From Leptolyngbya sp. PCC 6406 (GTDB lineage: Bacteria > Cyanobacteriota > Cyanobacteriia > Phormidesmidales > Phormidesmidaceae), in assembly GCF_000332095.2 (NCBI RefSeq), contig NZ_KI913949.1, positions 2,682,205 through 2,706,204 on the forward strand: 24,000 bases of DNA. The letters run 5' to 3'. The notes below the pieces were generated by a model, which saw only the letters and a list, made by a program, of their open reading frames with translations, did not search any database and was not told the origin of the DNA. Shown one piece after another: positions 6,691 to 24,000 of this stretch (the first letter of the stretch is position 1; the number at the start of each line of letters is the position of its first letter). Made by a program: the position numbers and the translations under genes.

Positions 6691-6975
6691 ATGCTGGACC
6701 AATCGCTACAATTTCTGACCCCGGAGGAATCCGCCGCTGTGGATCGGGCGCTGATGACCACCCCCGAGAAATTTCTGACCCGTCTGACGATCTCCACCGC
6801 CAAACTACTCAAGGCGATCGCCCAAGATCTCGGTACGCCGATTGAAGCCCTAACGCCTGAACAGATCATTGCCTGGTTTGAAGCAGATGCAAAACGAAAG
6901 CAGGAGCAAGGGGTAAATGCATCGGTCCTTAAGTGGCAAGCTCCAGAACTGGAGGATCTCACCGGCCACCCCTAG
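6691..6975 (+). CDS. Hypothetical protein (94 aa)
   Basis: ATG-initiated ORF with host-like codon usage and no competing ORF of better quality. I recognise no family. Confidence 0.45.
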   Translation: MLDQSLQFLTPEESAAVDRALMTTPEKFLTRLTISTAKLLKAIAQDLGTPIEALTPEQIIAWFEADAKRKQEQGVNASVLKWQAPELEDLTGHP

Positions 6976-7021
6976 GGGGTGGGCGAAATCCTACTGAGTA
7001 GGCCAGCCGAGGGGGAGACTT

Positions 7022-7063
7022 GCCAAAGAGGAATGGCCAAAGAGGAATGGCCAAAGAGGAATG
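7022..7063. repeat. 14-bp tandem repeat, 3 copies (gccaaagaggaatg)
   Basis: Perfect copies at 7022-7035, 7036-7049 and 7050-7063, in the intergenic region upstream of the AAA+ ATPase gene. Confidence 0.95.
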
Positions 7064-7188
7064 GCCAGTCACCTGGAACTACCCAAGCATAAAGCACGGC
7101 TAACCTGGCCAGACACGAGAAGCTTCCCGAGACGGGTGCCCCTCCCGTATTGGGCACTCTAGGGCCAGTAATCAACTCCGGGGGCATC

Positions 7189-8721
7189 ATGTCTTTTGCC
7201 AGCAGCGTTCGCCACTTCCAGACCTTGGTCCTCTCCTTCCACGGCATGGTGGTGATTGAAACCGTGGAAGAAGAGCGGGTGCAGACGCTGATTAATGCTG
7301 CCGTCAACGATCTGCAGATGGCGGTCTTTGAATGGAGTGTGGCCTCAGGTCTGACCCGGTCCCAGGGCAACCTGCATAACCGTTGGAGCAACGAATACAC
7401 CCCACCGGGAATACAACAGCCTCAGTTGATTGAGGGGACTTGTGAGCCCCTAGAGGTACTGCGCCACATTCAGTCCATGGGCTATCAGGCTATCTACTGG
7501 CTTAAGGATTTTGCCTGCCATCTAGAGAATCCCATCATTGCCCGCCAGTTACGAGAGCTGCTGCACCAGTTTTCCCACAACCGTTCCACCCTGGTATTGA
7601 CGGGGCACAACATCTCCCTTCCGGCAGATATTGCCCAAGAGGTGGTGTACTTTGACCTGAAGTTACCGGAACCGGATGAACTGTACCAGGCCATTACCGA
7701 AGTTCTGAAATCTCTTAAGGGCCGAGTCAAGGTGGAAATTCACCCCGAGGGTATCAATGCCTTGGTGAAGGCGATGCGGGGAATGACGCTACAACAGGCC
7801 CGCAAGGTGATCGCCTACGCTGCCCTCGACGACGGCAAACTCAGTCCCGACGATGTCAAGCGGGTGCTAGAGCGGAAGATCCAGGTGCTCCATGAGGAGG
7901 GGTTACTGGACTATATTCCCCCAGAGATGAACCCGGCCCAACTGGGGGGATTTAACGGCCTCAAGGCTTGGCTGACGCGGGCACGGATGGGATTTAGTGC
8001 CCAGGCGCGGGCCTTTAATCTGCCCACCCCTCGGGGCATTTTGATCGTGGGTATCCAGGGATGTGGTAAGTCTCTAGCCGCAAAAACCATTGCCCGAGAA
8101 TGGTCGATGCCGTTGCTGAAGTTAGATGCAGGGCGTCTTTACGACAAGTACATTGGCGAATCGGAGAAAAACTTTCGGCGAGCGGTAACCCTGGCGGAAA
8201 CTATGGCTCCAGCAATACTGTGGATCGACGAGATTGAGAAAAGTATGGGCCAATCTGATAGCGATAGTGACGGGGGGCTCAGCCGCCGTCTCTTTGGCTC
8301 TTTTCTCACTTGGCTTCAAGAGAAGTCGGAGGAGGTATTTGTAGTGGCGACTGCCAATGATCTGTCCCGTATTCCCCCAGAACTGCTGCGAAAGGGACGT
8401 TTTGATGAGATTTTCTTTGTCGATTTGCCCGATGAACAGGAAAGGGTAGGAATTCTCCAAATCCACCTGATCCGGCGCAAGCAGGATCCCCGTCGCTTTG
8501 ATCTGCCGACCCTGGTGCAGGTGACGGATGGCTACAGCGGCGCTGAGATCGAGCAGGTGATTATTACCGCCCTCTATCGCGCTATCCACGAAAAATGCCC
8601 TGTGGATACTCAACTCCTAGTGGAGGAGATACAGGCCACAGTGCCCCTCTCTATTAGTCGCCGAGAAGATTTACACCGCCTACGGGCGATGGCGATGGAT
8701 CGCTTTGTGCCTGTGCGCTGA
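7189..8721 (+). CDS. AAA+ family ATPase, Ycf46-like (single AAA domain with a roughly 270-aa N-terminal region)
   Basis: Walker A is GIQGCGKSLAAK and Walker B is ILWIDEIEK. The C-terminal part has a second region of homology (ATANDLSRIPPELLRKGRFDEIFFVDLP). The N-terminus (FQTLVLSFHGMVVIETVEEERV) resembles Ycf46-type proteins. The ORF track starts at TTG 7150, but ATG 7189 (MSFASS...) is more plausible. Confidence 0.85.
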   Translation: MSFASSVRHFQTLVLSFHGMVVIETVEEERVQTLINAAVNDLQMAVFEWSVASGLTRSQGNLHNRWSNEYTPPGIQQPQLIEGTCEPLEVLRHIQSMGYQAIYWLKDFACHLENPIIARQLRELLHQFSHNRSTLVLTGHNISLPADIAQEVVYFDLKLPEPDELYQAITEVLKSLKGRVKVEIHPEGINALVKAMRGMTLQQARKVIAYAALDDGKLSPDDVKRVLERKIQVLHEEGLLDYIPPEMNPAQLGGFNGLKAWLTRARMGFSAQARAFNLPTPRGILIVGIQGCGKSLAAKTIAREWSMPLLKLDAGRLYDKYIGESEKNFRRAVTLAETMAPAILWIDEIEKSMGQSDSDSDGGLSRRLFGSFLTWLQEKSEEVFVVATANDLSRIPPELLRKGRFDEIFFVDLPDEQERVGILQIHLIRRKQDPRRFDLPTLVQVTDGYSGAEIEQVIITALYRAIHEKCPVDTQLLVEEIQATVPLSISRREDLHRLRAMAMDRFVPVR

Positions 8722-14238: not shown

Positions 14239-16692
14239 ATGGACAGCGCCGTACACAACAAGCTGGTCTCCCTGATCTGGTCGATCGCCGACGATTGCCT
14301 CCGCGATGTCTATGTACGAGGCAAATACCGCGATGTTATCCTCCCCATGTTTGTGCTGCGGCGGCTCGACTGCCTGCTAGAGGTCACAAAAGATGCCGTA
14401 ATGGAGGAGGTGCGCTTCCAGACGGAAGAAGTGGGCCTGACTGAATTTGACCCTGAGGCTCTGAAGCAAGCCTCAAGCCACGTTTTCTACAACACCTCAG
14501 ACTGGACTCTGAAGAAGCTGGTAGAAACGGCCTCCAACAATCGCCAGATCCTAGAGGCCAACTTCAAAGCCTACTTAGATGGCTTCAGCCAGAACGTCAA
14601 AGAGATTATCGACAGCTTCTACCTGCGCGACCAGATTCGGCGCATGGTGCAGGCTGATGTGCTGCTCGACGTGCTGGAGAAGTTCACCAGCCCCAACATC
14701 AACTTCAGCCCCCACGACACCACCGATCCGGATGGGCGCAAGCTGCCGGGGTTGAGCAACCTGGGCATGGGCTATGTGTTCGAGGAGCTGATCCGTAAAT
14801 TTAACGAAGAGAACAACGAAGAAGCCGGGGAGCATTTCACCCCCCGCGAGGTGATCAAGCTGATGACTCACCTGTTGTTTATGCCGGTGAAAGACCAGCT
14901 TCCCCCAGTGATGCTGATTTACGACGGAGCCTGTGGGTCAGGGGGAATGCTCACCGAGTCCCAGAACTTCATCAACGACCCGGAAGGCGGCATCAAGTCG
15001 GATACCAAGGTTTACCTCTACGGCAAGGAAGTCAACAGCGAAACTTACGCCATTTGCCAGTCGGACATGATGATCAAGGGCAATAGCCCAGAAAACATCA
15101 AGTTCGGCTCCACCCTGGCAACGGATGATTTCGGCGACATGCGCTTCGACTTCATGCTAGAAAATCCGCCCTATGGCAAGTCCTATAAGGCCGACCAGAA
15201 ATACATCCTGGATGGCAAGGAAGTGCTGGATCAGCGGTTTGTCGTGCCCCTGAAAAACTTCTGGGGTGAAACCACCCTGGAACCAGCAATCCCCCGGTCT
15301 TCTGACGGACAACTGCTGTTCCTGATGGATATGGTCAGCAAAATGAAGCCCCTCAGCCAGAGCCCCCTCGGTTCCAGGGTGGCCTCGATCCACAACGGGT
15401 CATCGCTGTTTACGGGGGATGCGGGCAGTGGGGAGAGCAACATTCGCCGCTACATCATCGAGAACGACTGGCTGGAGGCGATCATCCAGTTGCCCCAGAA
15501 CCTGTTCTACAACACAGGCATTTCGACCTATATCTGGGTGTTGTCGAACCACAAAGCCCCGGAGCGCAAAGGTAAGGTGCAGCTCATTGACGCTTCGGAG
15601 CTATACCAGAAGCTGCGGAAGAACCTGGGGGCGAAGAACTGTGAGTTTGCCCCTGAGCACATTGAGCAGATTACCCGCCTGTATCTGGACCTGGTGGATC
15701 AGCCAACGCTGCCCCCCAATGGGGACGGCGAACAACCGCCCCGCCCGATCTCGAAGGTGTTTCGGAATCGAGACTTTGGCTTTTATAAGGTGACGATTGA
15801 GCGCCCATTGCGGCTCTCGGCCCAGTTCACGCCAGAGCGGGTGGCGGCGCTGCGGTATGCGCCAGCGCTGGCGGAGGTGATGGCGTGGGCCTATGGCAAG
15901 TGGGGCGACGATATCTACACCACTCTGGCTGAACACAAGCAGGTAATTGAAGACCACCTTGAGAAGGAAGAAATCAGCCTGAATCCGAAGAACCGTAAGG
16001 CTTTGTTTACCCCTAAGACCTGGACGGCCCAGCGGGAACTGATGCAAGCGGCTGAGCAGCTTATGGAGTCGATCGGGCAGGATGAGTGGAGCAATTTCAA
16101 CGCTTTTTCAGAAGCGGTGTCGGACTCGCTGAAGGAGCTGGGGCTGAAGCTGTCGGCCAGTGAACAGAAGCAGATCTTCAATGCCGTGACCTGGCGGGAT
16201 GAGTCGGCGGCGAAGGTGGTAAAGAAGGCCCACAAGCTGAAGGGCGAGAAGTTGGCGGCGCTGCTGGCGGCGTTGGACACGACGGCGGCGCACCTGGCGG
16301 ACTTTGGCTACTGGCCCACGGAGCAGGCCGGGGTGTGGATTGAGTATGAGACCGACAGCGAGTTACGGGATACGGAAAGCATTCCGCTGAACTATGCCCA
16401 CTCTTCGAGAAGCGCAGAGCGCTACACCCCCAACCCCTCTCCCAACGTTAAGAGAGGGGGGCAACAAATCCATCACTACTTTTTGCAGGAGGTGCGGCCC
16501 CATGTGGGGGATGCCTGGATTGACCTGGACAAGACTCAGATTGGCTATGAGGTTAACTTCAACAAGTATTTCTACCAGCACAAGCCGTTGAGGAAGTTAG
16601 AGACGGTGGTTGAGGAGATTTTGGCGTTGGAGGAGAAGACGGAAGGGTTGTTGAAGCGGTTGGTGAGCTTTGGGATGGTAGCCGATGGCTAG
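14239..16692 (+). CDS. hsdM: Type I restriction-modification system methyltransferase subunit HsdM (long form, 817 aa)
   Basis: Has an HsdM N-terminal domain (KLVSLIWSIADDCLRDVYVRGKYRDVILPMFVLRRLD), SAM motif I (YDGACGSGGML) and catalytic motif IV (NPPYGKS). The C-terminal GYEVNFNKYFY region is typical of this HsdM family. Confidence 0.95.
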   Translation: MDSAVHNKLVSLIWSIADDCLRDVYVRGKYRDVILPMFVLRRLDCLLEVTKDAVMEEVRFQTEEVGLTEFDPEALKQASSHVFYNTSDWTLKKLVETASNNRQILEANFKAYLDGFSQNVKEIIDSFYLRDQIRRMVQADVLLDVLEKFTSPNINFSPHDTTDPDGRKLPGLSNLGMGYVFEELIRKFNEENNEEAGEHFTPREVIKLMTHLLFMPVKDQLPPVMLIYDGACGSGGMLTESQNFINDPEGGIKSDTKVYLYGKEVNSETYAICQSDMMIKGNSPENIKFGSTLATDDFGDMRFDFMLENPPYGKSYKADQKYILDGKEVLDQRFVVPLKNFWGETTLEPAIPRSSDGQLLFLMDMVSKMKPLSQSPLGSRVASIHNGSSLFTGDAGSGESNIRRYIIENDWLEAIIQLPQNLFYNTGISTYIWVLSNHKAPERKGKVQLIDASELYQKLRKNLGAKNCEFAPEHIEQITRLYLDLVDQPTLPPNGDGEQPPRPISKVFRNRDFGFYKVTIERPLRLSAQFTPERVAALRYAPALAEVMAWAYGKWGDDIYTTLAEHKQVIEDHLEKEEISLNPKNRKALFTPKTWTAQRELMQAAEQLMESIGQDEWSNFNAFSEAVSDSLKELGLKLSASEQKQIFNAVTWRDESAAKVVKKAHKLKGEKLAALLAALDTTAAHLADFGYWPTEQAGVWIEYETDSELRDTESIPLNYAHSSRSAERYTPNPSPNVKRGGQQIHHYFLQEVRPHVGDAWIDLDKTQIGYEVNFNKYFYQHKPLRKLETVVEEILALEEKTEGLLKRLVSFGMVADG

Positions 16693-17098
16693 GGATTTGT
16701 TTCATGATTTAGTTAGATCTGCGCTGGAAGCTGAGGGCTGGACGATCACCGACGATCCCTATGAAGTTAGGCTCGATCGCAGCAAGTTTCAAATTGATTT
16801 GGCCGCAGAACAAATCATTGCAGCAGAAAGGGATAGTACTAAAATTGCGGTTGAAATCAAGAGTTTTCTGAGTCCATCAGTTGTCACAGACTTTTATGCC
16901 GCATTGGGTCAATTTTTAAGTTATCGCTTGGTTTTGCAAGAGGTAGAGCCACAACGAATTCTTTATCTGGCTGTTCCTGTCGATAGTTATGATCGGTTTT
17001 TTTAATCTAAATTTGCTCAGTTAGCCTTACATGAATATCAACTGAAGTTGGTTGTCTATGATTCCGAAAAAGGAGACATTGTAGAATGGATAAGTTAA
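16685..17098 (+). pseudogene. xisH: xisH (XisH-family protein) interrupted by an in-frame TAA at 17003-17005
   Basis: The N-terminal 106 codons match the XisH family (ARDLFHDLVRSALEAEGWTITDDPY...KIAVEIKSF...LYLAVPVDSYDRFF). After the TAA the same frame continues as SKFAQLALHEYQLKLVVYDSEKGDIVEWIS*, the usual XisH C-terminus. That frame ends 13 nt inside xisI. Confidence 0.8.
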
Positions 17099-17421
17099 CG
17101 ATTTATCGTCAGCATATCAAAGCTTTGCTATCCCAGTATGCAGGTTGGGGTAAATCCAAGAAGCCGTATGAATCACAACTTCTATTTGATGAGACACATG
17201 ACCATTATTTATGGTTAGATGTGGGCTGGGATGGATCCAAGCGGATTTATCATCCGGTCATGCATTTTGATATTAAGGATGAAAAAATCTGGCTACAGGA
17301 AAATATGACGGATTTGAATCCGGCTGCGGATCTGGTGGATATGGGTGTGCCAAAGGCGGACATTGTGTTGGGCTTACAACCACCGTATAAGCGACCCTAC
17401 ACTGACTATGGGGTGGCGTGA
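17086..17421 (+). CDS. xisI: XisI-family protein
   Basis: Translation is MDKLTIYRQHIKALLSQYAG...DHYLWLDVGWDGSKRIYHPVMHFDIKDEKIWLQENMTD...VPKADIVLGLQPPYKRPYTDY, the canonical XisI sequence. Confidence 0.9.
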   Translation: MDKLTIYRQHIKALLSQYAGWGKSKKPYESQLLFDETHDHYLWLDVGWDGSKRIYHPVMHFDIKDEKIWLQENMTDLNPAADLVDMGVPKADIVLGLQPPYKRPYTDYGVA

Positions 17422-17521: not shown

Positions 17522-17647
17522 TTCTACAACAAGCAGCACAAGCCGTTAAGGGATCTGAAAACGGTGATTGAGGAGATTTTGGTGTTGGAGGAGAAGACGG
17601 AAGGGTTGTTGAAGCAGTTGGTGAGCTTTGAAAATTCGGGTGTTTAG
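17522..17647 (+). pseudogene. Remnant copy of the hsdM 3' end (last ~41 codons plus stop)
   Basis: 17534-17630 aligns to 16576-16672 with about 10 mismatches in 97 nt. In frame it reads FYNKQHKPLRDLKTVIEEILVLEEKTEGLLKQLVSFENSGV*, against YQHKPLRKLETVVEEILALEEKTEGLLKRLVSFGMVADG* in the intact gene. Confidence 0.8.
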
Positions 17648-17698: not shown

Positions 17699-18022
17699 AT
17701 GGACAAAAACTTAACCTTTCGCTACGACCGCGTGGGAGACATCCTCTATATCGATCTGTGCCCTCCCTATGCGGAGCAGGAGTCTGAGGAAATCGGGGAT
17801 GAAATTATTGCCCGGTTCAACCCAGAGTCAAATGCGATAGAAAATTTAGAGATTTTGTTTTTCTCGCAACGCTTTGCTGATAAGCCGTTATTTGAGTTGC
17901 CAATCTTAGCTGATTTCAAGTTGGCGAGTCAAGTTTCAAAGCCCTGCCTGATATCGCAGTTACGCCGAGGGGAAGTTGCTGCCAATCCTGATCTATTCAC
18001 AAACCACGATCGCCCGTTTTGA
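17699..18022 (+). CDS. DUF2283-like small protein
   Basis: The N-terminal pattern (FRYDRVGDILYIDL...SEEIGDEIIARFNPESNAIENLEILFFSQR) matches the DUF2283 fold signature. An RBS-like aggagagg lies upstream. Confidence 0.65.
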   Translation: MDKNLTFRYDRVGDILYIDLCPPYAEQESEEIGDEIIARFNPESNAIENLEILFFSQRFADKPLFELPILADFKLASQVSKPCLISQLRRGEVAANPDLFTNHDRPF

Positions 18023-18025
18023 ATA

Positions 18026-18271
18026 ATGCCCACAGTTTTAAGAATTGGTGCCTATCGTTTTTATTTTTACAGTCATGAACCCAACGAACCACCCCATGTG
18101 CATGTTGATCGTGATGCGTCATCCGTCAAGTTTTGGTTAGAGCCAGTGAGTTTAGCGAAAAACCTAGGATTTAGCGCAAAAGAGTTGCGCAAGCTAGGAG
18201 GGTTGGTTCAAGAGCATCAAGCAGAATTATTGGAGGCGTGGCATGGCTACTTTGGCAATTCAAACGGATGA
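18026..18271 (+). CDS. DUF4160 domain protein
   Basis: MPTVLRIGAYRFYFYSHEPNEPPHVHVDRD...FSAKELRKL...LLEAWHGYF is the characteristic DUF4160 N-terminus, with the PPHVHV motif. Confidence 0.85.
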   Translation: MPTVLRIGAYRFYFYSHEPNEPPHVHVDRDASSVKFWLEPVSLAKNLGFSAKELRKLGGLVQEHQAELLEAWHGYFGNSNG

Positions 18272-18515
18272 GCGGGTGAAGGCGGTGAGTTTCACGGAGG
18301 ATGCCATCAGCGTAGGGCTAATGGATGGGCGCATCATTACGGTGCCGCTGGTGTGGTATCCGCGCTTGCTGCACGCTACACCAGAGCAGCGGAAAGGCTG
18401 GGAAATTTGTGGTGGTGGCTATGGGTTGCACTGGGAAGCGATTGATGAAGACCTGAGCACGGAAGGAATGCTGCGGGGTGCGCCTGCGCCCGGTGCGGTG
18501 GGGGAGGTGGAGTGA
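18243..18515 (+). CDS. DUF2442 domain protein
   Basis: VKAVSFTEDAISVGLMDGRIITVPLVWYPRLLHATPEQRKGWEICGGGYGLHWEAIDEDLSTEGML is a typical DUF2442 sequence. It overlaps DUF4160 by 29 nt, and its TGA shares one base with the hsdS ATG. Confidence 0.8.
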   Translation: MATLAIQTDERVKAVSFTEDAISVGLMDGRIITVPLVWYPRLLHATPEQRKGWEICGGGYGLHWEAIDEDLSTEGMLRGAPAPGAVGEVE

Positions 18516-19822
18516 TGCCGACGTTTCCAAGGTATGAGAGTTACAAGGATAGCGGGGTTGAGTGGTTGGGAGAGATTCCGAATCATTGGAATTTTCACAA
18601 ATTAAAGCATATTGCTAAAGTTCGGTTAAGCAATGTAGACAAGCACTCAAGAGCTAATGAGCTTCCAGTCAAACTTTGTAACTACACCGATGTCTATTAT
18701 AGGAACTTTATTACCAGTGAAATTTCTTTCATGGAGGCTACTGCTACGGAAGAGCAGGTTCGTAGTTTTGCTCTAGAAAAAGGTGATGTTCTGATCACAA
18801 AAGACTCAGAATCATTCGACGATATTGCAGTTCCTGCATATGTTCCTGAAACACTGGCAAACACTATATGCGGCTATCATCTGGCACATATAAAACCGAC
18901 TTATATGGAGGGTAGCTATCTATTTAGAGCTTTTCAAGCCGAAGGAATTTCGTCACAGTTTAGAGTGTCTGCCAATGGAATAACAAGGTTTGGAATCGGC
19001 AAAAGTGCAATTAATGATGCAATTTTCCCACTTCCTCCCGTTGAAGAACAGAAGCGGATTGTTGAGTTTTTAGATCGCACTACCACCGAGATAGACCGTG
19101 CCATTTCCCAAAAACAACGCCTCATCGAACTCCTGCAAGAACAAAAAGCGATCGTCATCAATCAAGCCGTTACCCAAGGGCTAAACCCAAAAGCATCAAT
19201 GCGTGATAGTGGCCTCAATTGGCTGGGGTCGATTCCTCCGCATTGGGATGTCCGGCGAGCCAAGTTTCTCTTTAGAGAAGTAGATGAGCGTTCTCAGACT
19301 GGAACTGAAGAACTGCTCTCTGTTTCTCATATGACGGGAGTAACACCGCGATCAGAGAAGAACGTTTACATGTTCATGGCAGAAGACTACACAGGTTCCA
19401 AACTCTGCCGAAAAGACGACTTAGTTATCAATATTATGTGGGCCTGGATGGGTGCATTAGGCGTTTCAGACCGAATTGGAATTGTCAGTCCCTCCTACGG
19501 AGTCTTCAGGCAGATGGAGCCAGACACCTTTAATTCTTGGTATCTAGAGCATCTATTACGCAGCACGGAGTATGTTGCTCAATACAACAGAATCTCAACA
19601 GGCTTGCATTCATCTAGACTTCGGCTCTATGCCCATATGTTCTTAGGTATGGAAATCCTCTTGCCACCTAAGAAAGAGCAGGATCGGATTACATCAGTAA
19701 CTCTTGAAAGAACGCGGCAAATTGACGAAGCCATTAACTCTATTGAGTCTGAAATAACCACTCTAGGAGACCTTCGCTCAATCCTTATCTCCAAAGCCGT
19801 AACTGGAAAAATAAAAGTCTGA
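18515..19822 (+). CDS. hsdS: Type I restriction-modification specificity subunit HsdS (two target-recognition domains)
   Basis: The motif WLGEIPNHWNF...(TRD1) is followed by the central conserved helix EEQKRIVEFLDRTTTEIDRAISQKQRLIELLQEQKAIVINQAVTQGLNP. A second WLGSIPPHWDV...(TRD2) is followed by EQDRITS...LGDLRSILISKAVTGKIKV. The ORF track starts at GTG 18512, but ATG 18515 is more likely. Confidence 0.93.
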   Translation: MPTFPRYESYKDSGVEWLGEIPNHWNFHKLKHIAKVRLSNVDKHSRANELPVKLCNYTDVYYRNFITSEISFMEATATEEQVRSFALEKGDVLITKDSESFDDIAVPAYVPETLANTICGYHLAHIKPTYMEGSYLFRAFQAEGISSQFRVSANGITRFGIGKSAINDAIFPLPPVEEQKRIVEFLDRTTTEIDRAISQKQRLIELLQEQKAIVINQAVTQGLNPKASMRDSGLNWLGSIPPHWDVRRAKFLFREVDERSQTGTEELLSVSHMTGVTPRSEKNVYMFMAEDYTGSKLCRKDDLVINIMWAWMGALGVSDRIGIVSPSYGVFRQMEPDTFNSWYLEHLLRSTEYVAQYNRISTGLHSSRLRLYAHMFLGMEILLPPKKEQDRITSVTLERTRQIDEAINSIESEITTLGDLRSILISKAVTGKIKV

Positions 19823-19832
19823 GGGCGAAATT

Positions 19833-19886
19833 ATGGTCAATCAAACCAATCAAGACATTCCCCTCACCGCTGTTAGAAGAAAATAG
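19833..19886 (+). other. 17-codon mini-ORF resembling the hsdR 5' leader (probable scar of the original hsdS-hsdR junction)
   Basis: ATGGTCAATCAAACCAATCAAGAC... (MVNQTNQDIPLTAVRRK*) starts 10 nt after the hsdS stop. Compare hsdR ATGGTCAGCAAAACCAATGAACGA (MVSKTNERAL) and the MNT gene ATGATCAGCCAAACCAACGAACAA (MISQTNEQALTAV). Confidence 0.45.
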
Positions 19887-19898
19887 GAGGAAACCCTG

Positions 19899-20159
19899 AT
19901 GGTCAATTCATCTCTGGATACCCAAGTTCGCTATGTCACCAACGCCGCTGGCAAAACCACCGATGTGTTGGTGCCCCTGGAATTGTGGCAACAGCTCATT
20001 CACGCCCTGCAAGATCCTGATAGTGGTCTGGCCTGGATCGATGAGCACGAACCCAACGCGAAAATTCTGGCAGATTTGCAAACCTCGCTTCAACAAGCTG
20101 CCGCAGGGCAGACCTTTCCGGTTGCTCAGCTTTGGGATGATTTGGATGACGAGCCATGA
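19899..20159 (+). CDS. Putative type II antitoxin (partner of the downstream RelE/ParE toxin)
   Basis: An 86-aa acidic protein. Its N-terminal beta-strand/helix pattern (VRYVTNAAGKTTDVLVPLELWQQLIHAL) is common in cyanobacterial antitoxins. It has a 4-nt ATGA overlap with the toxin gene. Confidence 0.6.
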   Translation: MVNSSLDTQVRYVTNAAGKTTDVLVPLELWQQLIHALQDPDSGLAWIDEHEPNAKILADLQTSLQQAAAGQTFPVAQLWDDLDDEP

Positions 20160-20491
20160 CGAACGTTCGATTTACGTCGAGTTTTAAGCGTCGTCTCAAA
20201 GGGCTTAAAAAACGCTATCGTCAAGTTCAAGCCGATCTACAGCCGATTATTCGAGAACTCGAACAAGGCCACCTCATTGGTGATCAAGTTTCTGGAGCCA
20301 CTTCTACAGTTTTCAAAGTACGTGCCAAGAATAGCGATATTCCCACAGGCAAAAGTGGCGGGTATCGGATTATCTACCAGGTGCTTTCTCCCGAAAACAT
20401 TCTGCTGCTGCTCGTTTATGCTAAATCCGACCAGGCCGATGTCAGTATGGGAGAGATCGAAACTGCTATTGCCAAAGCTCTAGAAGAGTGA
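20156..20491 (+). CDS. RelE/ParE-superfamily type II toxin
   Basis: Contains FTSSFKRRLKGLKKRY...VFKVRAKNSDIPTGKSGGYRIIYQV...ILLLLVYAKSDQADVS, the characteristic RelE/ParE (Gp49/HigB-like) core. Confidence 0.85.
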   Translation: MTNVRFTSSFKRRLKGLKKRYRQVQADLQPIIRELEQGHLIGDQVSGATSTVFKVRAKNSDIPTGKSGGYRIIYQVLSPENILLLLVYAKSDQADVSMGEIETAIAKALEE

Positions 20492-20498
20492 AGAACCT

Positions 20499-20816
20499 AT
20501 GATCAGCCAAACCAACGAACAAGCCCTTACTGCTGTAATGGTTCTCCAAACCTTGCGATCGCAGCCCAACCTGTTCACCCAATTCAAAATCAAAACCCTC
20601 GCCCTCTTCGGCTCCACCGCCCGCAACGAAGCCACCGACACCAGCGACCTCGATTTTTTGGTGGAATTTGAAGGATCTACCACCTTCGACCTCTATATGG
20701 ATCTGAAATTTTTCCTGGAAGACCTGTTTGAGAAAAACGTCGATTTAGTCACCAAGGGTTCTCTCAAGCCGCAGATTGCCGACATCGTGCTAGCGGAGGC
20801 GATCAATGTCGCCTAA
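20499..20816 (+). CDS. Minimal nucleotidyltransferase (MNT, DNA polymerase beta-like; antitoxin half of HEPN/MNT modules)
   Basis: Carries the LALFGSTARNEATDTSDLDFLVEF motif (GS...DxD). The first 13 codons resemble the hsdR leader. The native start may be ATG 20538 (MVLQTL...). Confidence 0.85.
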   Translation: MISQTNEQALTAVMVLQTLRSQPNLFTQFKIKTLALFGSTARNEATDTSDLDFLVEFEGSTTFDLYMDLKFFLEDLFEKNVDLVTKGSLKPQIADIVLAEAINVA

Positions 20817-20849
20817 ACTGACGCTTTACCTCAATAACATCCTCAAATG
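20805..20849 (+). pseudogene. Possible remnant of the cognate HEPN/DUF86 gene (14 codons)
   Basis: An ATG overlaps the MNT 3' end, as is typical for MNT-HEPN pairs. It reads MSPKLTLYLNNILK*, resembling the DUF86 N-terminal ..YL.DIL.. pattern, and then terminates. No intact HEPN ORF follows. Confidence 0.3.
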
Positions 20850-20916
20850 AACAAGCCTTGGCAAGACATATCGAGCAGTCCGACTAAGATAGAAACACCG
20901 TAGGAAAGGCCAGCCG

Positions 20917-21522
20917 ATGGTTCAACTCCAGCCCGAACGACTCAAGCCCCCCTCCCCAGACCAGCGCATTGTCCACTCCGGCATTACCTGGCAGCAATTC
21001 AAGCTGATTCAGTCGGGCTTTGGCGATACCCGCAACGTGCGCCTGTTTTACTACAACACCACCGTCGAAATCATCATGCCGGGGCGCGATCACGAATTTT
21101 TCAAATCCATTATTGGCTTTCTACTAGAGCTCTTTTGTCTAGAAACAGGCACCGAATTTGAACCCCTGGGCTCCACCACCCAAGAGCGAGAAGGCGAAGC
21201 CTCCGCCGAACCGGATGAGTCCTACTGTTTTGGCGCATCTAAGCCCACCCCCGATTTAGTCCTTGAAGTGATTGTTACCAGCGGTAGCATCAAGAAACTG
21301 AACCTCTATCAAGTGTTGAACATCCCCGAAGTTTGGTTTTGGGAAGATGGCGTGTTCAGCCTCTATCGGCTGCGAAGTTCCGAATATGAGGCAATCAGCC
21401 AAAGCGAAATTCCAGAACTGGAAACACTGGATATTGAACTGCTCACCCGCTGCGTGTTGATTGCCGAAACTTCCCGCCTTGATGCCGCTAATATCTTCCG
21501 CAATGCACTGAAGTCTAAATGA
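20917..21522 (+). CDS. Uma2-family (DUF820) putative endonuclease, copy 1
   Basis: Contains VRLFYYNTTVEIIMPGRDHEF...EPDESY...PDLVLEVIVTSGS...YQVLNIPEVWFWEDG, which is Uma2 / PD-(D/E)xK-like architecture. Confidence 0.85.
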   Translation: MVQLQPERLKPPSPDQRIVHSGITWQQFKLIQSGFGDTRNVRLFYYNTTVEIIMPGRDHEFFKSIIGFLLELFCLETGTEFEPLGSTTQEREGEASAEPDESYCFGASKPTPDLVLEVIVTSGSIKKLNLYQVLNIPEVWFWEDGVFSLYRLRSSEYEAISQSEIPELETLDIELLTRCVLIAETSRLDAANIFRNALKSK

Positions 21523-21557
21523 TCCCCTGCTCTATTAAGTTTTGAGGCTGGTTTGCC

Positions 21558-22109
21558 ATGACCGTCACCCCCTACAAATGGACATTGGATCGCTACCATC
21601 AAGCGATTGATGCAGGTTTGTTTGACGACCAACCCATAGAGCTACTCCGGGGAGACCTCATCGTTACGCCGCCAGAGGGAAAACTCCATGCCTACTACAA
21701 CAGTGAAGTAGGGGACTATTTGCGGGCACTGCTGGGCAGTCGAGGTAAAATCCGTGAAGCTCATCCCATTACCCTCCCAAACGACTCCGAGCCCATTCCT
21801 GACCTAGCAATTGTGAAGCCCCTAGGGGCGGTATACCTAGAGCATCACCCCTACCCTGGCGATATTTTCTGGCTGATCGAATTTTCCAAAGCCACCCTTA
21901 GCCCAGATCTCACCGTCAAGCGTGCGATTTATGCCGAAGCGGGGATTCCTGAATATTGGGTAGTGAATCTGAACCACAAAGAACTGAACGTCTTCCGAGA
22001 CCTAGACAACGGTCACTACACCATTGAAGAGACCTACACCACAGGCCATGTTTCTCCCTGTGCGTTTACCAACATTGAAATTTCTGTGCAACGCCTGATG
22101 AATCCCTAG
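21558..22109 (+). CDS. Uma2-family (DUF820) putative endonuclease, copy 2
   Basis: Contains YKWTLDRYHQAIDAGLFDDQPIELLRGDLIVTPPEG..H......IPDLAIV...LIEFSKATLSPDLTVKRAIYAEAGIPEYWVVNL, the canonical Uma2 sequence. Confidence 0.88.
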   Translation: MTVTPYKWTLDRYHQAIDAGLFDDQPIELLRGDLIVTPPEGKLHAYYNSEVGDYLRALLGSRGKIREAHPITLPNDSEPIPDLAIVKPLGAVYLEHHPYPGDIFWLIEFSKATLSPDLTVKRAIYAEAGIPEYWVVNLNHKELNVFRDLDNGHYTIEETYTTGHVSPCAFTNIEISVQRLMNP

Positions 22110-22123
22110 TCGAGATCAGCCCT

Positions 22124-24000
22124 ATGGTCAGCAAAACCAATGAACGAGCGCTGGAAGATTGCATCGAAGCTGCATTGGTGGAGGGTGCCCGCTATGAAAA
22201 GGGCGACCCGGCTGACTTTGACCAGGAGTTTGCCTGCGATCGCGAGAAATTCTGGCGCTTCCTGGAAACCACCCAGCCCGAACAACTGGCCAAGGTGCAG
22301 GATCAGCCCAACTGGCAGCGGCTAATTCTGGAGCGCTTTCACCGCAAAGTCAAAAAAGACGGCATCCTCTCAGTGCTGAAAAAGGGCATCGCCATCAACG
22401 ATGCCGACTTTACCCTGCTCTACAGCCTGCCCTACAACGACGCCAACCCTACCATCCGCGAAAACTTCGATCGCAATATCTTCTCCGTCACCCGCCAGGT
22501 TCACTACTCCGAAAGCAACCCTGGCCTGTCCATCGACCTGGTGCTGTTTATCAACGGCATGGCGATCGCCACGATGGAACTCAAAAACCCCTGGTCTGGC
22601 CAGACCGTCTACCACGCCAAAAAGCAATACTGCCAAGACCGCGACCCCAAAGAAACCCTGCTCAACTTTGGCCGCTGCCTCGTCCACTTCGCCGTAGACC
22701 CCGACGAAGTCTGGATGACCACCAAACTGGCCCAGGACAAAACCTACTTCCTCCCCTTCAACCAAGGCTGCAACTACGGCAAAGGCAACCCGCCGAATGT
22801 GGGGGCCGACGGCACATCGGGCGGCCACAAAACCGCCTACCTGTGGGAAGACGTGCTCACCCGCGCCAGCCTCGCCACCATCATTGAGCACTTCGTCCTG
22901 CTAGAGGGGGACAAAAAAGATCCCCTCCCCAAAAAGACCCTGATCTTCCCCCGCTACCACCAGCGCGATGTGGTGCGACAGTTGCTCAGCCATGCCAAAA
23001 CCCACGGCCCTGGCCAGAAGTACCTGATTCAGCACTCCGCAGGTTCCGGCAAGTCCAACTCCATCACCTGGACCGCCTACCAACTGATCGAACTCTACCC
23101 CGATGGGGCCGACCGACCCCTGTTTGATTCCGTCGTGGTGGTCACCGATCGCCGCATCCTCGACAAACAACTGCGGAACAACATCAAAGACTTTTCCGAA
23201 GTCAAAAACATTGTCGCCCCTGCCTTCAAATCCTCTGACCTGAAAGCCGCGCTGGAGCAGGGCAAGAAAATCATCATCACCACCATCCAGAAATTTCCCT
23301 TCATCGTCGATGGCATCGAAGACATGGGCGGTAAGAACTTTGCCGTGATCATTGACGAAGCCCACTCCTCCCAGAGCGGCCTTGCTGCCGACAAAATGAA
23401 CATGGCCCTGGGCAACGATGACAACGATGACAACGATGACGACGAGCCCGAAGACAACCAGGATCGCATTCTCAAAGTGATGGCAGGCCGCAAGATGAGC
23501 CCCAACGCCTCCTTCTTCGCCTTCACCGCCACCCCCAAAAACACCACCCTAGAGAAATTTGGCCAGCCCACCCCAGACGGCGGCTTCGAGCCCTTTCACC
23601 TGTATTCCATGAAGCAGGCGATCGAAGAAGGCTTCATTCTAGATGTGCTGGCCAACTACACCACCTACCGCAGCTACTACGAGATTCAGAAATCCATCGA
23701 GGAAAATCCCGAATTTGAAACCGTCCGCGCCCAGAAAAAACTCCGGGAAAAAGTCGAAAACCACTACCTGACCATCAACACCAAAGCCAACATCATCGTT
23801 AACCACTTCCTGGAGAGCGTGGTTGCCCCCAAGCAGCTCAAAGGCAAAGCCCGAGGCATGGTCGTCACCCGCAACATTGAAGCCGCCATTCGCTATTTTT
23901 TCGCCATCCGCGACGGGCTCAAAGCCGCCAACGCTCCCTTTGGCGCGATCGTCGCGTTTTCCGGCAAAAAGACCATCGACGGCATCGAATACACCGAAGA
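22124..24000 (+). CDS. hsdR: Type I restriction endonuclease subunit HsdR, N-terminal ~625 codons (continues past the window end)
   Basis: The hand-translated frame is open from ATG 22124 to nt 24000. It shows a PD-(D/E)xK nuclease motif (SIDLVLFINGMAIATMELKN), helicase motif I (QHSAGSGKSNS), the DEAH box (VIIDEAHSSQ) and FTATPK. It is absent from the ORF track only because there is no stop codon in the window. Confidence 0.93.
   Translation, partial: MVSKTNERALEDCIEAALVEGARYEKGDPADFDQEFACDREKFWRFLETTQPEQLAKVQDQPNWQRLILERFHRKVKKDGILSVLKKGIAINDADFTLLYSLPYNDANPTIRENFDRNIFSVTRQVHYSESNPGLSIDLVLFINGMAIATMELKNPWSGQTVYHAKKQYCQDRDPKETLLNFGRCLVHFAVDPDEVWMTTKLAQDKTYFLPFNQGCNYGKGNPPNVGADGTSGGHKTAYLWEDVLTRASLATIIEHFVLLEGDKKDPLPKKTLIFPRYHQRDVVRQLLSHAKTHGPGQKYLIQHSAGSGKSNSITWTAYQLIELYPDGADRPLFDSVVVVTDRRILDKQLRNNIKDFSEVKNIVAPAFKSSDLKAALEQGKKIIITTIQKFPFIVDGIEDMGGKNFAVIIDEAHSSQSGLAADKMNMALGNDDNDDNDDDEPEDNQDRILKVMAGRKMSPNASFFAFTATPKNTTLEKFGQPTPDGGFEPFHLYSMKQAIEEGFILDVLANYTTYRSYYEIQKSIEENPEFETVRAQKKLREKVENHYLTINTKANIIVNHFLESVVAPKQLKGKARGMVVTRNIEAAIRYFFAIRDGLKAANAPFGAIVAFSGKKTIDGIEYTE
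23414..23440 (+). repeat. 9-nt in-frame tandem repeat (aacgatgac, 3 copies) encoding NDDNDDNDD in hsdR
   Basis: Copies at 23414-23422, 23423-23431 and 23432-23440, within the acidic segment GNDDNDDNDDDEPEDNQD after the DEAH box. Confidence 0.9.

Follow-up and report, generated by a model that had tools for sequence, protein, structure and literature searches.

Type I restriction-modification (R-M) loci are known to contain non-hsd genes that run in the same direction as the hsd genes. The described cases include PrrC (EcoprrI), the Campylobacter rlo genes, TgvAB of Vibrio cholerae VPI-2 and the loci surveyed by Payne et al. 2024, and according to the passages of these sources that were searched, the embedded genes are mostly of toxin-antitoxin and nuclease type (PMC11411939; PMC12707154; bioRxiv 10.1101/2024.01.29.577857). 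The same passages do not describe the embedding process, duplicated hsd ends at the borders or an hsdR-derived N-terminus on an embedded gene, and the searched text of Payne et al. (bioRxiv 10.1101/2024.01.29.577857) gave zero matches for “recombination” and for “remnant”. Genes embedded in R-M and defence operons are now used to discover immune systems, and their arrival and expression are largely undescribed. Here we analysed a type I locus of the cyanobacterium Leptolyngbya sp. PCC 6406, contained in a stretch of 24,000 nucleotides (nt) (contig NZ_KI913949.1, positions 2,682,205 to 2,706,204 of the forward strand), hereafter the window, the numbering of which is used below. Like the loci of PrrC, rlo and TgvAB, it carries same-strand non-hsd genes between its hsd genes. 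In addition, the first codons of hsdR (the leader) recur between hsdS and hsdR. From their sequences, these repeats are very probably the scars of nested cassette insertions at the hsdR start, to which an ancient fusion of this start with a nucleotidyltransferase gene (MNT) has to be added.

Three ATG codons of the window open related sequences: the ATG at 22124 opens hsdR (MVSKTNERAL; copy 3), the one at 20499 opens MNT (MISQTNEQAL; copy 2) and the one at 19833 opens a 17-codon open reading frame (ORF) 10 nt past the hsdS stop (19820-19822; copy 1). These leaders were pointed out in a preliminary description of the window, the coordinates of which proved exact when the sequence was read again. 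Its count of 24 identical nt out of 30 between the hsdR and MNT starts was also right, and this value is an outlier in the window, the next-best matches to either 30-mer on both strands being 18-19/30. Copy 1 does resemble the other two more loosely, as had been noticed (17/24 with each of copies 2 and 3), and this remains the best match of the window (next 15-16). Smith-Waterman scores were compared with a background of 5000 random 63-nt segments of the window. The score is 22 between copies 2 and 3 (background maximum 15; 0/5000), 15 between copies 1 and 2 (0-5/5000) and 14 between copies 1 and 3 (0-7/5000), and an unprompted repeat search of the window recovers the three copies as one family (D4). 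For all three pairs (0-7/5000), the similarity is far above what an A/C-rich composition yields, a doubt that the preliminary description had itself raised.

The three copies announced were therefore all real; a fourth one had been missed. Copy 4 (20846-20887) lies between a remnant of the HepT toxin gene and the first of two Uma2 genes (Uma2a), is truncated at its 5' end and has no ATG. Its similarity to hsdR within the window is weak (24-41/5000 background segments), but the segment 20846-20916 is ~90% identical to a full relic (MVSQTNERALARRIEQSD and a stop) and its Uma2a junction in L025 (related loci are designated by L numbers and homologous proteins by P numbers). Judging from this alignment, the window has lost everything from HepT codon 14 through leader codon 5, and a single deletion would have taken both HepT and the start of copy 4. 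No leader copy was found between the two Uma2 genes. The window holds one type I R-M operon on the + strand from 14239 onward, interrupted by small genes, and hsdM, hsdS and hsdR are all recognisable with Pfam and co-oriented (+ strand). The non-hsd genes are XisH, XisI, DUF2283, DUF4160 and DUF2442 between hsdM and hsdS, and RelN/RelE, MNT and the two Uma2 genes between hsdS and hsdR. The features are as follows.

14239-16692, + strand: hsdM (Pfam HsdM_N and N6_Mtase).
16685-17421, + strand: XisH and XisI.
17534-17630, + strand: hsdM 3' relic.
17699-18515, + strand: DUF2283, DUF4160 and DUF2442.
18512-19822, + strand: hsdS, specificity subunit (Pfam Methylase_S; C-terminus ..AVTGKIKV before the stop, conserved in alignment).
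19823-19832, + strand: hsdS-to-leader spacer of 10 nt (GGGCGAAATT), same length in related loci.
19833-19886, + strand: copy 1, 17-codon dead-end ORF (MVNQTNQDIPLTAVRRK and a stop), from window scan and Smith-Waterman.
19899-20159, + strand: RelN-like antitoxin, cassette 1 (Pfam, NCBIfam).
20156-20491, + strand: RelE/ParE toxin, cassette 1 (Pfam, NCBIfam).
20499-20528, + strand: copy 2 leader (MISQTNEQAL), MNT codons 1-10, in frame (24/30 nt with the hsdR start).
20499-20816, + strand: MNT, MntA-type nucleotidyltransferase of 105 amino acids (aa), type VII antitoxin (Pfam NTP_transf_2/Polbeta).
20806-20850, + strand: HepT (HEPN toxin) remnant, 14 codons (MSPKLTLYLNNILK) then a stop, from alignment to the intact HepT of L025 and L004.
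20846-20887, + strand: copy 4, hsdR codons 6-18 and a stop (NEQALARHIEQSD and the stop), from ~90% identity to the L025 relic and junction.
20888-20916, + strand: adapter or 5' untranslated region (UTR) (GATAGAAACACCGTAGGAAAGGCCAGCCG) with a Shine-Dalgarno motif, directly before Uma2a.
20917-21522, + strand: Uma2-family gene, Uma2a (Pfam Uma2).
21558-22109, + strand: second Uma2-family gene (Pfam Uma2).
22124-24000, + strand: hsdR, continuing past the window end, with copy 3 as its genuine start (MVSKTNERALEDCIEAAL) (Pfam HSDR_N, ResIII, SWI2_SNF2).

We investigated the origin of the leader by scanning one genome per species with a degenerate DNA pattern encoding M-[VI]-S-[QK]-T-N-E-x-A-[LF], which gave at least 118 loci. 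Among the matches listed, all open hsdR genes or hsdR 5' fragments, none belongs to another gene family, and the hosts include Gamma-, Delta- and Zetaproteobacteria, Bacteroidota, Cyanobacteria and one metagenome-assembled genome of Erysipelotrichaceae. As this sample is biased by construction, a second search was made with the HsdR query deprived of its first 30 residues. Of its 120 best homologues, 80 start with M[VI][ST][QK][TS]NE.ALE, N6, E7, A9, L10, E11 and L18 being invariant in these 80, and most of the others are one-residue variants (e.g. MPSQTNEQALE, MTSQTNEQALE). The HsdR N-terminus MVSQTNEQALE..IE..L is near-invariant across phyla and the next ~40 residues are highly variable. Wobble bases of the leader differ freely between taxa; the constraint therefore acts on the protein. 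These data indicate that the leader is the native N-terminus of an HsdR family of ~1000 aa (the complete HsdR, P0121, has 1000 aa and is 100% identical to an NCBI protein of PCC 6406), so that any transfer must have gone from hsdR to MNT. This flags an almost invariant N-terminal motif in a widespread HsdR family; no solved structure is a sequence relative of this family at E <= 1e-5.

The preliminary description had proposed that MNT was fused to one of these leaders, that its first 13 codons were borrowed from hsdR and that its core began near the internal ATG at 20538. The hsdR origin of the leader stands, whereas a local event does not, the same leader being common to dozens of MNT homologues. 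The 120 best MNT homologues include 36 with the start M[VI]S[QK]T, 17 of them with MVSQTNE, and every named source of a leader-bearing MNT is cyanobacterial. The exact N-terminal length of the window MNT is shared by 78 homologues. Because residue 14 is a methionine in only 3 of these 78, the internal ATG (20538) is not conserved as a start. Indels in MNT leaders stay in frame and “TAV”, counted earlier among the borrowed codons, aligns with the N-terminal helix of the relatives (LTAETVL) and belongs to MNT. The fusion point lies after L10, with ~10 borrowed codons instead of 13. From these alignments, the MNT fusion is genuine, hsdR-derived, ancient and common to a cyanobacterial MntA clade, which makes it an example of an antitoxin family with an N-terminus taken from a restriction enzyme.

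Leader-bearing MNTs away from hsdR loci would have spoken against the fusion. Every context examined is a type I locus, intact or decayed. MNT lies 10 nt after hsdS in L130, L025 and L001/3, it is inside a full type I locus in L004-6, and in L128 it is accompanied by an hsdS 3' relic (..KAVTRKI and a stop). One MNT relative that is apparently leaderless (P0081, in L125) carries, within a decayed locus, a leader relic with a frameshift, and another (P0107), adjoining BrxL and DndB, has a different N-terminus. In the decayed locus L125 (4002-7637), three MNT-HepT pairs in tandem accompany an hsdM 3' relic, XisH-XisI and DUF3024, and the MNT leaders show erosion (MTQDTKAQ, MLNEPKPT and a frameshifted one). 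As for the window MNT itself, the annotated 105-aa protein is 100% identical to P0001, has the NTP_transf_2 domain (Pfam, 3e-14) with the GSxxR...SDxD motif (LFGSTARNEATDTSDLD), and matches the NCBIfam MntA model over residues 28-99 with a score of 45.6, below the cut-off of 60. An intact cognate HepT is absent directly downstream; because only 14 codons of it are left, MNT, as an MntA-type antitoxin, is orphaned. Intact MNT-HepT or MNT-MNT2-HepT sets occupy the same position in L001, L004 and L025.

Copy 1, which had been read as a direct copy of hsdR, has another source. Once a 3-nt gap is allowed for, its alignment extends over MNT-specific codons (MVNQTNQDIPLTAV vs. MISQTNEQA-LTAV), so it is a copy of an MNT 5' end and not of hsdR directly, and its length matches MNT alleles such as P0088 (MVSQTNHDPALTAD). 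It is the relic of the first 14 codons of a leader-bearing MNT of a different allele, a stump that would have been left on arrival of the RelN/RelE cassette. An analogue exists in L005/L006, where a 48-codon MNT fragment lies 10 nt after hsdS, to the left of XisHI. Copy 2 is identical to the hsdR leader of L105 at 26 of 27 nt (manual count). The window, L105 and L016 have a homologous junction between the RelE stop and the leader (7-10 nt); past the leader, the sequence runs on into MNT in the window and into hsdR in L105 and L016.

The insertions proposed here, like those in the preliminary description, which imagined successive arrivals at the hsdR start each leaving a target copy behind, imply an uninterrupted hsdS-hsdR arrangement in related genomes. 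Among the at least 118 loci, many indeed have an HsdS ending in ..AVTGKIKV(A) and then the hsdR ATG 0-13 nt after the stop. The two genes are uninterrupted in L008, L011, L028, L065, L068, L072, L084, L104, L112, L119 and L122. They stand exactly 10 nt apart in L133, which is a metagenome contig with an 89% identical HsdR and the order hsdM, GmrSD, hsdS, 10 nt, hsdR. In L133, the GmrSD-family gene (6827-8692) is embedded between hsdM and hsdS, which recalls TgvAB and BrxU. The spacer from hsdS to the leader is also exactly 10 nt in the window, L105, L025, L130 and L132. This survey shows the ancestral state to be hsdS stop, ~10 nt, hsdR. In other cyanobacterial loci, different cassettes are flanked by hsdR 5' relics, which number one to four and measure 27-205 nt, in the following orders.

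L105 (Egbenema): hsdS, 10 nt, 18-codon relic (MVSQTNEQALENCIERSN and a stop), antitoxin, RelE, hsdR.
L109: hsdS, 23-codon relic, Uma2b, hsdR.
L118: hsdS, 9-codon relic (MVSQTKNRA and a stop), ..., Uma2a, Uma2b, hsdR.
L025: hsdS, leader::MNT, HepT, 18-codon relic (MVSQTNERALARRIEQSD and a stop), Uma2a.
L004-6: hsdS, 48-codon MNT fragment, XisH, XisI, full MNT, MNT2, HepT, 18-codon relic (MVSETSEQALARYIKQSD and a stop), Uma2a, ..., hsdR.
L132 (HsdR 90% identical): four copies, of 35 nt (97%), 205 nt (96%) and 165 nt (89%) and the real start.

The copies of L132 are separated by an insertion sequence (IS), a 360-aa ORF and a DUF433-DUF5615 pair, and all begin at ATG -1 or -2. With their uninterrupted, one-cassette and multi-cassette states, these loci strongly support the successive insertions and form a readable record, from uninterrupted junctions to one cassette and to four-layer arrays, each layer being marked by hsdR-start relics. 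No multi-copy leader was found outside cyanobacteria in the 8-kb blocks examined, a weak negative as these blocks are arbitrary cuts.

A parallel scar exists at the 3' end of hsdM. The duplication noticed there earlier is a 97-nt direct repeat (16576-16672 and 17534-17630; family D1), 90% identical, around XisH-XisI. This hsdM 3' relic is also found after XisHI in L016, L021 and L078, and in the decayed locus L125 an hsdM 3' fragment stands ahead of XisHI. The hsdM duplication is the same type of scar as at hsdR, at the 3' end of a gene. HsdM is 817 aa long, with ~330 residues past the N6_Mtase domain; in L004, the equivalent region consists of a 504-aa HsdM and a separate 186-aa ORF. The window also has an inverted repeat (20552-20570/22228-22246) centred on GCGATCGC, the cyanobacterial HIP1 palindrome, which is probably not locus-specific. 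An exact 14-nt match to the hsdR start (TATGGTCAGCAAAA) lies inside hsdM (15330-15343; family D9); such a match is roughly what chance gives for 10 kb and it was not counted as a leader copy.

The cassettes recur in other loci. In L105 and L016, the hsdR leader comes immediately after the antitoxin-RelE cassette, and Uma2 homologues are found in the same hsdS-hsdR interval in L004, L021, L109 and L118. After the 18-codon relic comes an adapter segment (..GACTAAAATAGAGACACTGTAGGA..). This conserved adapter of ~30 nt (GACTAAAATAGAGACACTGTAGGAAAG..) precedes two unrelated cassettes, Uma2a in three loci (window, L004, L025) and antitoxin-RelE in two (L105, L016), and resembles a portable 5' UTR equipped with a Shine-Dalgarno motif. 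These mosaics of leader and adapter point to repeated recombination within the leader region.

The flanking housekeeping genes are a pair encoding the 20-kDa and 30-kDa subunits of NADH dehydrogenase, psbE, ycf48 and an RND efflux pump. Inside the operon, from hsdS to hsdR included, promoter-like and terminator-like sites show no excess over shuffled sequence, and the window has zero RNA-family matches in Rfam. Intergenic spacers are short (10, 12, -4, 7, 28, 35 and 14 nt). The hsdS TGA followed by GG forms a GAGG Shine-Dalgarno-like motif ~8 nt before the next ATG, and the Shine-Dalgarno motif of the antitoxin (AGGAGG) shares nucleotides with the TAG of copy 1. Given the short spacers, this TAG/AGGAGG overlap and the lack of excess internal promoters or terminators, the array is probably one operon with translational coupling. 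The 10-nt spacer, a classic coupling arrangement, would be the retained hsdS/hsdR translational-coupling junction.

The history of the window may be proposed as follows. A Uma2 cassette would first have landed after hsdR codon 18, with a relic (MVS..EQALAR.IEQSD and a stop) upstream and an intact hsdR downstream. An MNT-HepT pair would have landed after codon 10 of that relic, with the hsdR start fused in frame to MNT. The RelN/RelE cassette, with its own downstream leader attached, would then have landed after codon 14 of the resident MNT and left copy 1, and a later deletion would have extended from codon 14 of HepT to codon 5 of the leader. In the window, L005, L105, L109, L118 and L132, the insert is flanked by target-homologous direct repeats, the upstream one being variably truncated. 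Upstream copies end at codons 9, 10, 11, 14, 18, 23, 48, ~55 and ~68; with such variable breakpoints the recombination is not site-specific. Downstream copies are intact, and those on the right start at the ATG. Pfam identified neither a recombinase nor a transposase in the window ORFs tested, and the window repeat search showed no terminal inverted repeats or hairpins at the cassette borders. The variable breakpoints, the right-hand copies starting at the ATG and the lack of recombinase, transposase and terminal repeats together make a homology-anchored mechanism the most likely.

Campbell-type integration and homology-facilitated illegitimate recombination can both insert foreign DNA beside a homologous anchor, and when integration occurs by a single crossover, the insert ends up between two direct copies of the anchor. 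One route could therefore be the Campbell-type integration, by single crossover, of a circularised donor with the cassette and a 5' segment of hsdR or MNT. The other could be homology-facilitated illegitimate recombination, which is summarised for naturally transformable bacteria in a published account (PMC3240628). We put forward these specific routes only tentatively. Selection would keep only the insertions that regenerate an intact downstream gene, and the first ORF after hsdS would inherit the hsdS-coupled initiation junction. Promoter-less cassettes could in this way be chained by short spacers, and the direct repeats would give homology for later gain, loss and shuffling of cassettes.

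Several points weigh against this history. Neither the recombination itself nor a donor molecule or excised circle has been seen, and the order of events comes from the nesting alone. The scar is not obligatory either: L016 and L021 carry the Uma2b cassette directly after hsdS without any leader relic, and the idea that a relic always follows hsdS is consequently wrong. Moreover, MVSQT is better conserved than the next four residues across divergent MNT subclades, a pattern that vertical descent alone leaves unexplained and that points to selection acting on the initiation region, or to gene conversion involving hsdR leaders. The persistence of MVSQT where the following residues diverge also fits a functional co-option, in which the HsdR decapeptide or its mRNA would be a useful module kept by MNT (an hsdS-coupled initiation enhancer, or a stability or binding tag). 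The extreme conservation of the motif on HsdR across phyla, with its free wobble positions, and the erosion of the leaders in MNTs of decayed loci (L125) go in the same direction. However, co-option does not account for relics that are truncated or non-coding, copy 4 with its missing ATG being one. Moreover, we know of no experimental role for the HsdR N-terminus and the literature searched gave zero functions for this motif. In EcoKI, which has a different HsdR family, simple terminal ClpXP degrons were ruled out by the one study retrieved on this point (PMC4231737). Co-option is unlikely as the explanation of the repeats, and it is compatible with insertion scars rather than an alternative to them.

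A resemblance due to chance or composition, between short A/C-rich sequences following start codons, has a negligible probability. Short matches do arise randomly, witness the exact 14-nt hsdR-start match at 15330 in hsdM, but the 24/30 match is the lone outlier of the window, the Smith-Waterman scores beat all or nearly all of the 5000 background segments, relics elsewhere span 18-68 hsdR codons at 89-97% nt identity and all copies are in register at ATGs on cassette boundaries. The window scan, the Smith-Waterman background and the long relics of other loci refute it. A fusion that would be local and recent in this genome, the MNT cassette borrowing 13 codons from hsdR, could account for the in-frame leader of MNT and its resemblance to the resident hsdR start. 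It is highly improbable, since the same leader::MNT occurs in dozens of homologues from other cyanobacteria, copy 2 is nearer to the hsdR leader of L105 (26/27) than to its own hsdR start (24/30) and 10 codons are hsdR-like, not 13. The leader might also be a dedicated recombination site, comparable to attI/attC and served by a site-specific recombinase, perhaps involving XisH/XisI. The same sequence does repeatedly bound cassettes in many genomes, a shared adapter stands after the 18-codon relic and before two unrelated cassettes, and these loci repeatedly contain XisH/XisI pairs, which have duplications of their own on either side. Yet left breakpoints scatter from codon 9 to ~68, the window has zero attC-like inverted repeats, no integrase or serine recombinase appears in the window ORFs tested or in the gene lists of related loci, apart from unrelated IS, Tn3 and integrase genes in L132, and XisH/XisI are not known to be recombinases. 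Such a site is very unlikely and was rejected on the variable breakpoints and the lack of recombinase and hairpins. A transposon target-site duplication was rejected too, as the cassettes have no transposase and no terminal inverted repeats and the duplications (27-205 nt) are not of fixed length.

Nested insertions at the hsdR start, with the ancient MNT fusion, provide a concrete and testable model of embedding, in which a homology-anchored insertion would regenerate the downstream gene and reuse its initiation region. In this HsdR family, extra MVSQTNEQAL-type starts could serve as a simple signature of cassette borders. In a wider and rather doubtful reading, the hsdS/hsdR junction of cyanobacteria would be a cassette-capture platform, an integrase-free functional analogue of integrons in which the leader, together with its coupled 10-nt initiation region, acts as homology handle for the gain, loss and shuffling of cassettes and as portable expression adapter, the decapeptide being perhaps a tag co-opted by the MntA clade.

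Compared with known systems, embedded genes in type I loci are not new, whereas our literature searches retrieved no prior description of duplication scars at hsd cassette borders, including those at the hsdR start, and none of an embedded gene whose N-terminus comes from hsdR. Like integron arrays, the window has small promoter-less cassettes in one orientation at one site, related sequences that mark the boundaries and a combinatorial content. Unlike integrons, it has no IntI tyrosine recombinase (among the ORFs tested), no attI and no attC-type inverted repeats, and its boundaries are marked by repeated 5' coding fragments that vary in length and whose breakpoints are not fixed. The geometry of the duplications is the same as in Campbell-type integration. 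Classical homology-facilitated illegitimate recombination, in contrast to what is seen in the window, more often deletes recipient DNA than duplicates it. Finally, the window MNT shares the nucleotidyltransferase signature (..LFGSTARNEATDTSDLD..) of type VII MntA-HepT modules, the relatives having an overlapping HepT downstream of it; it differs from these modules by a HepT reduced to 14 codons and by the 10-residue N-terminal extension derived from hsdR.

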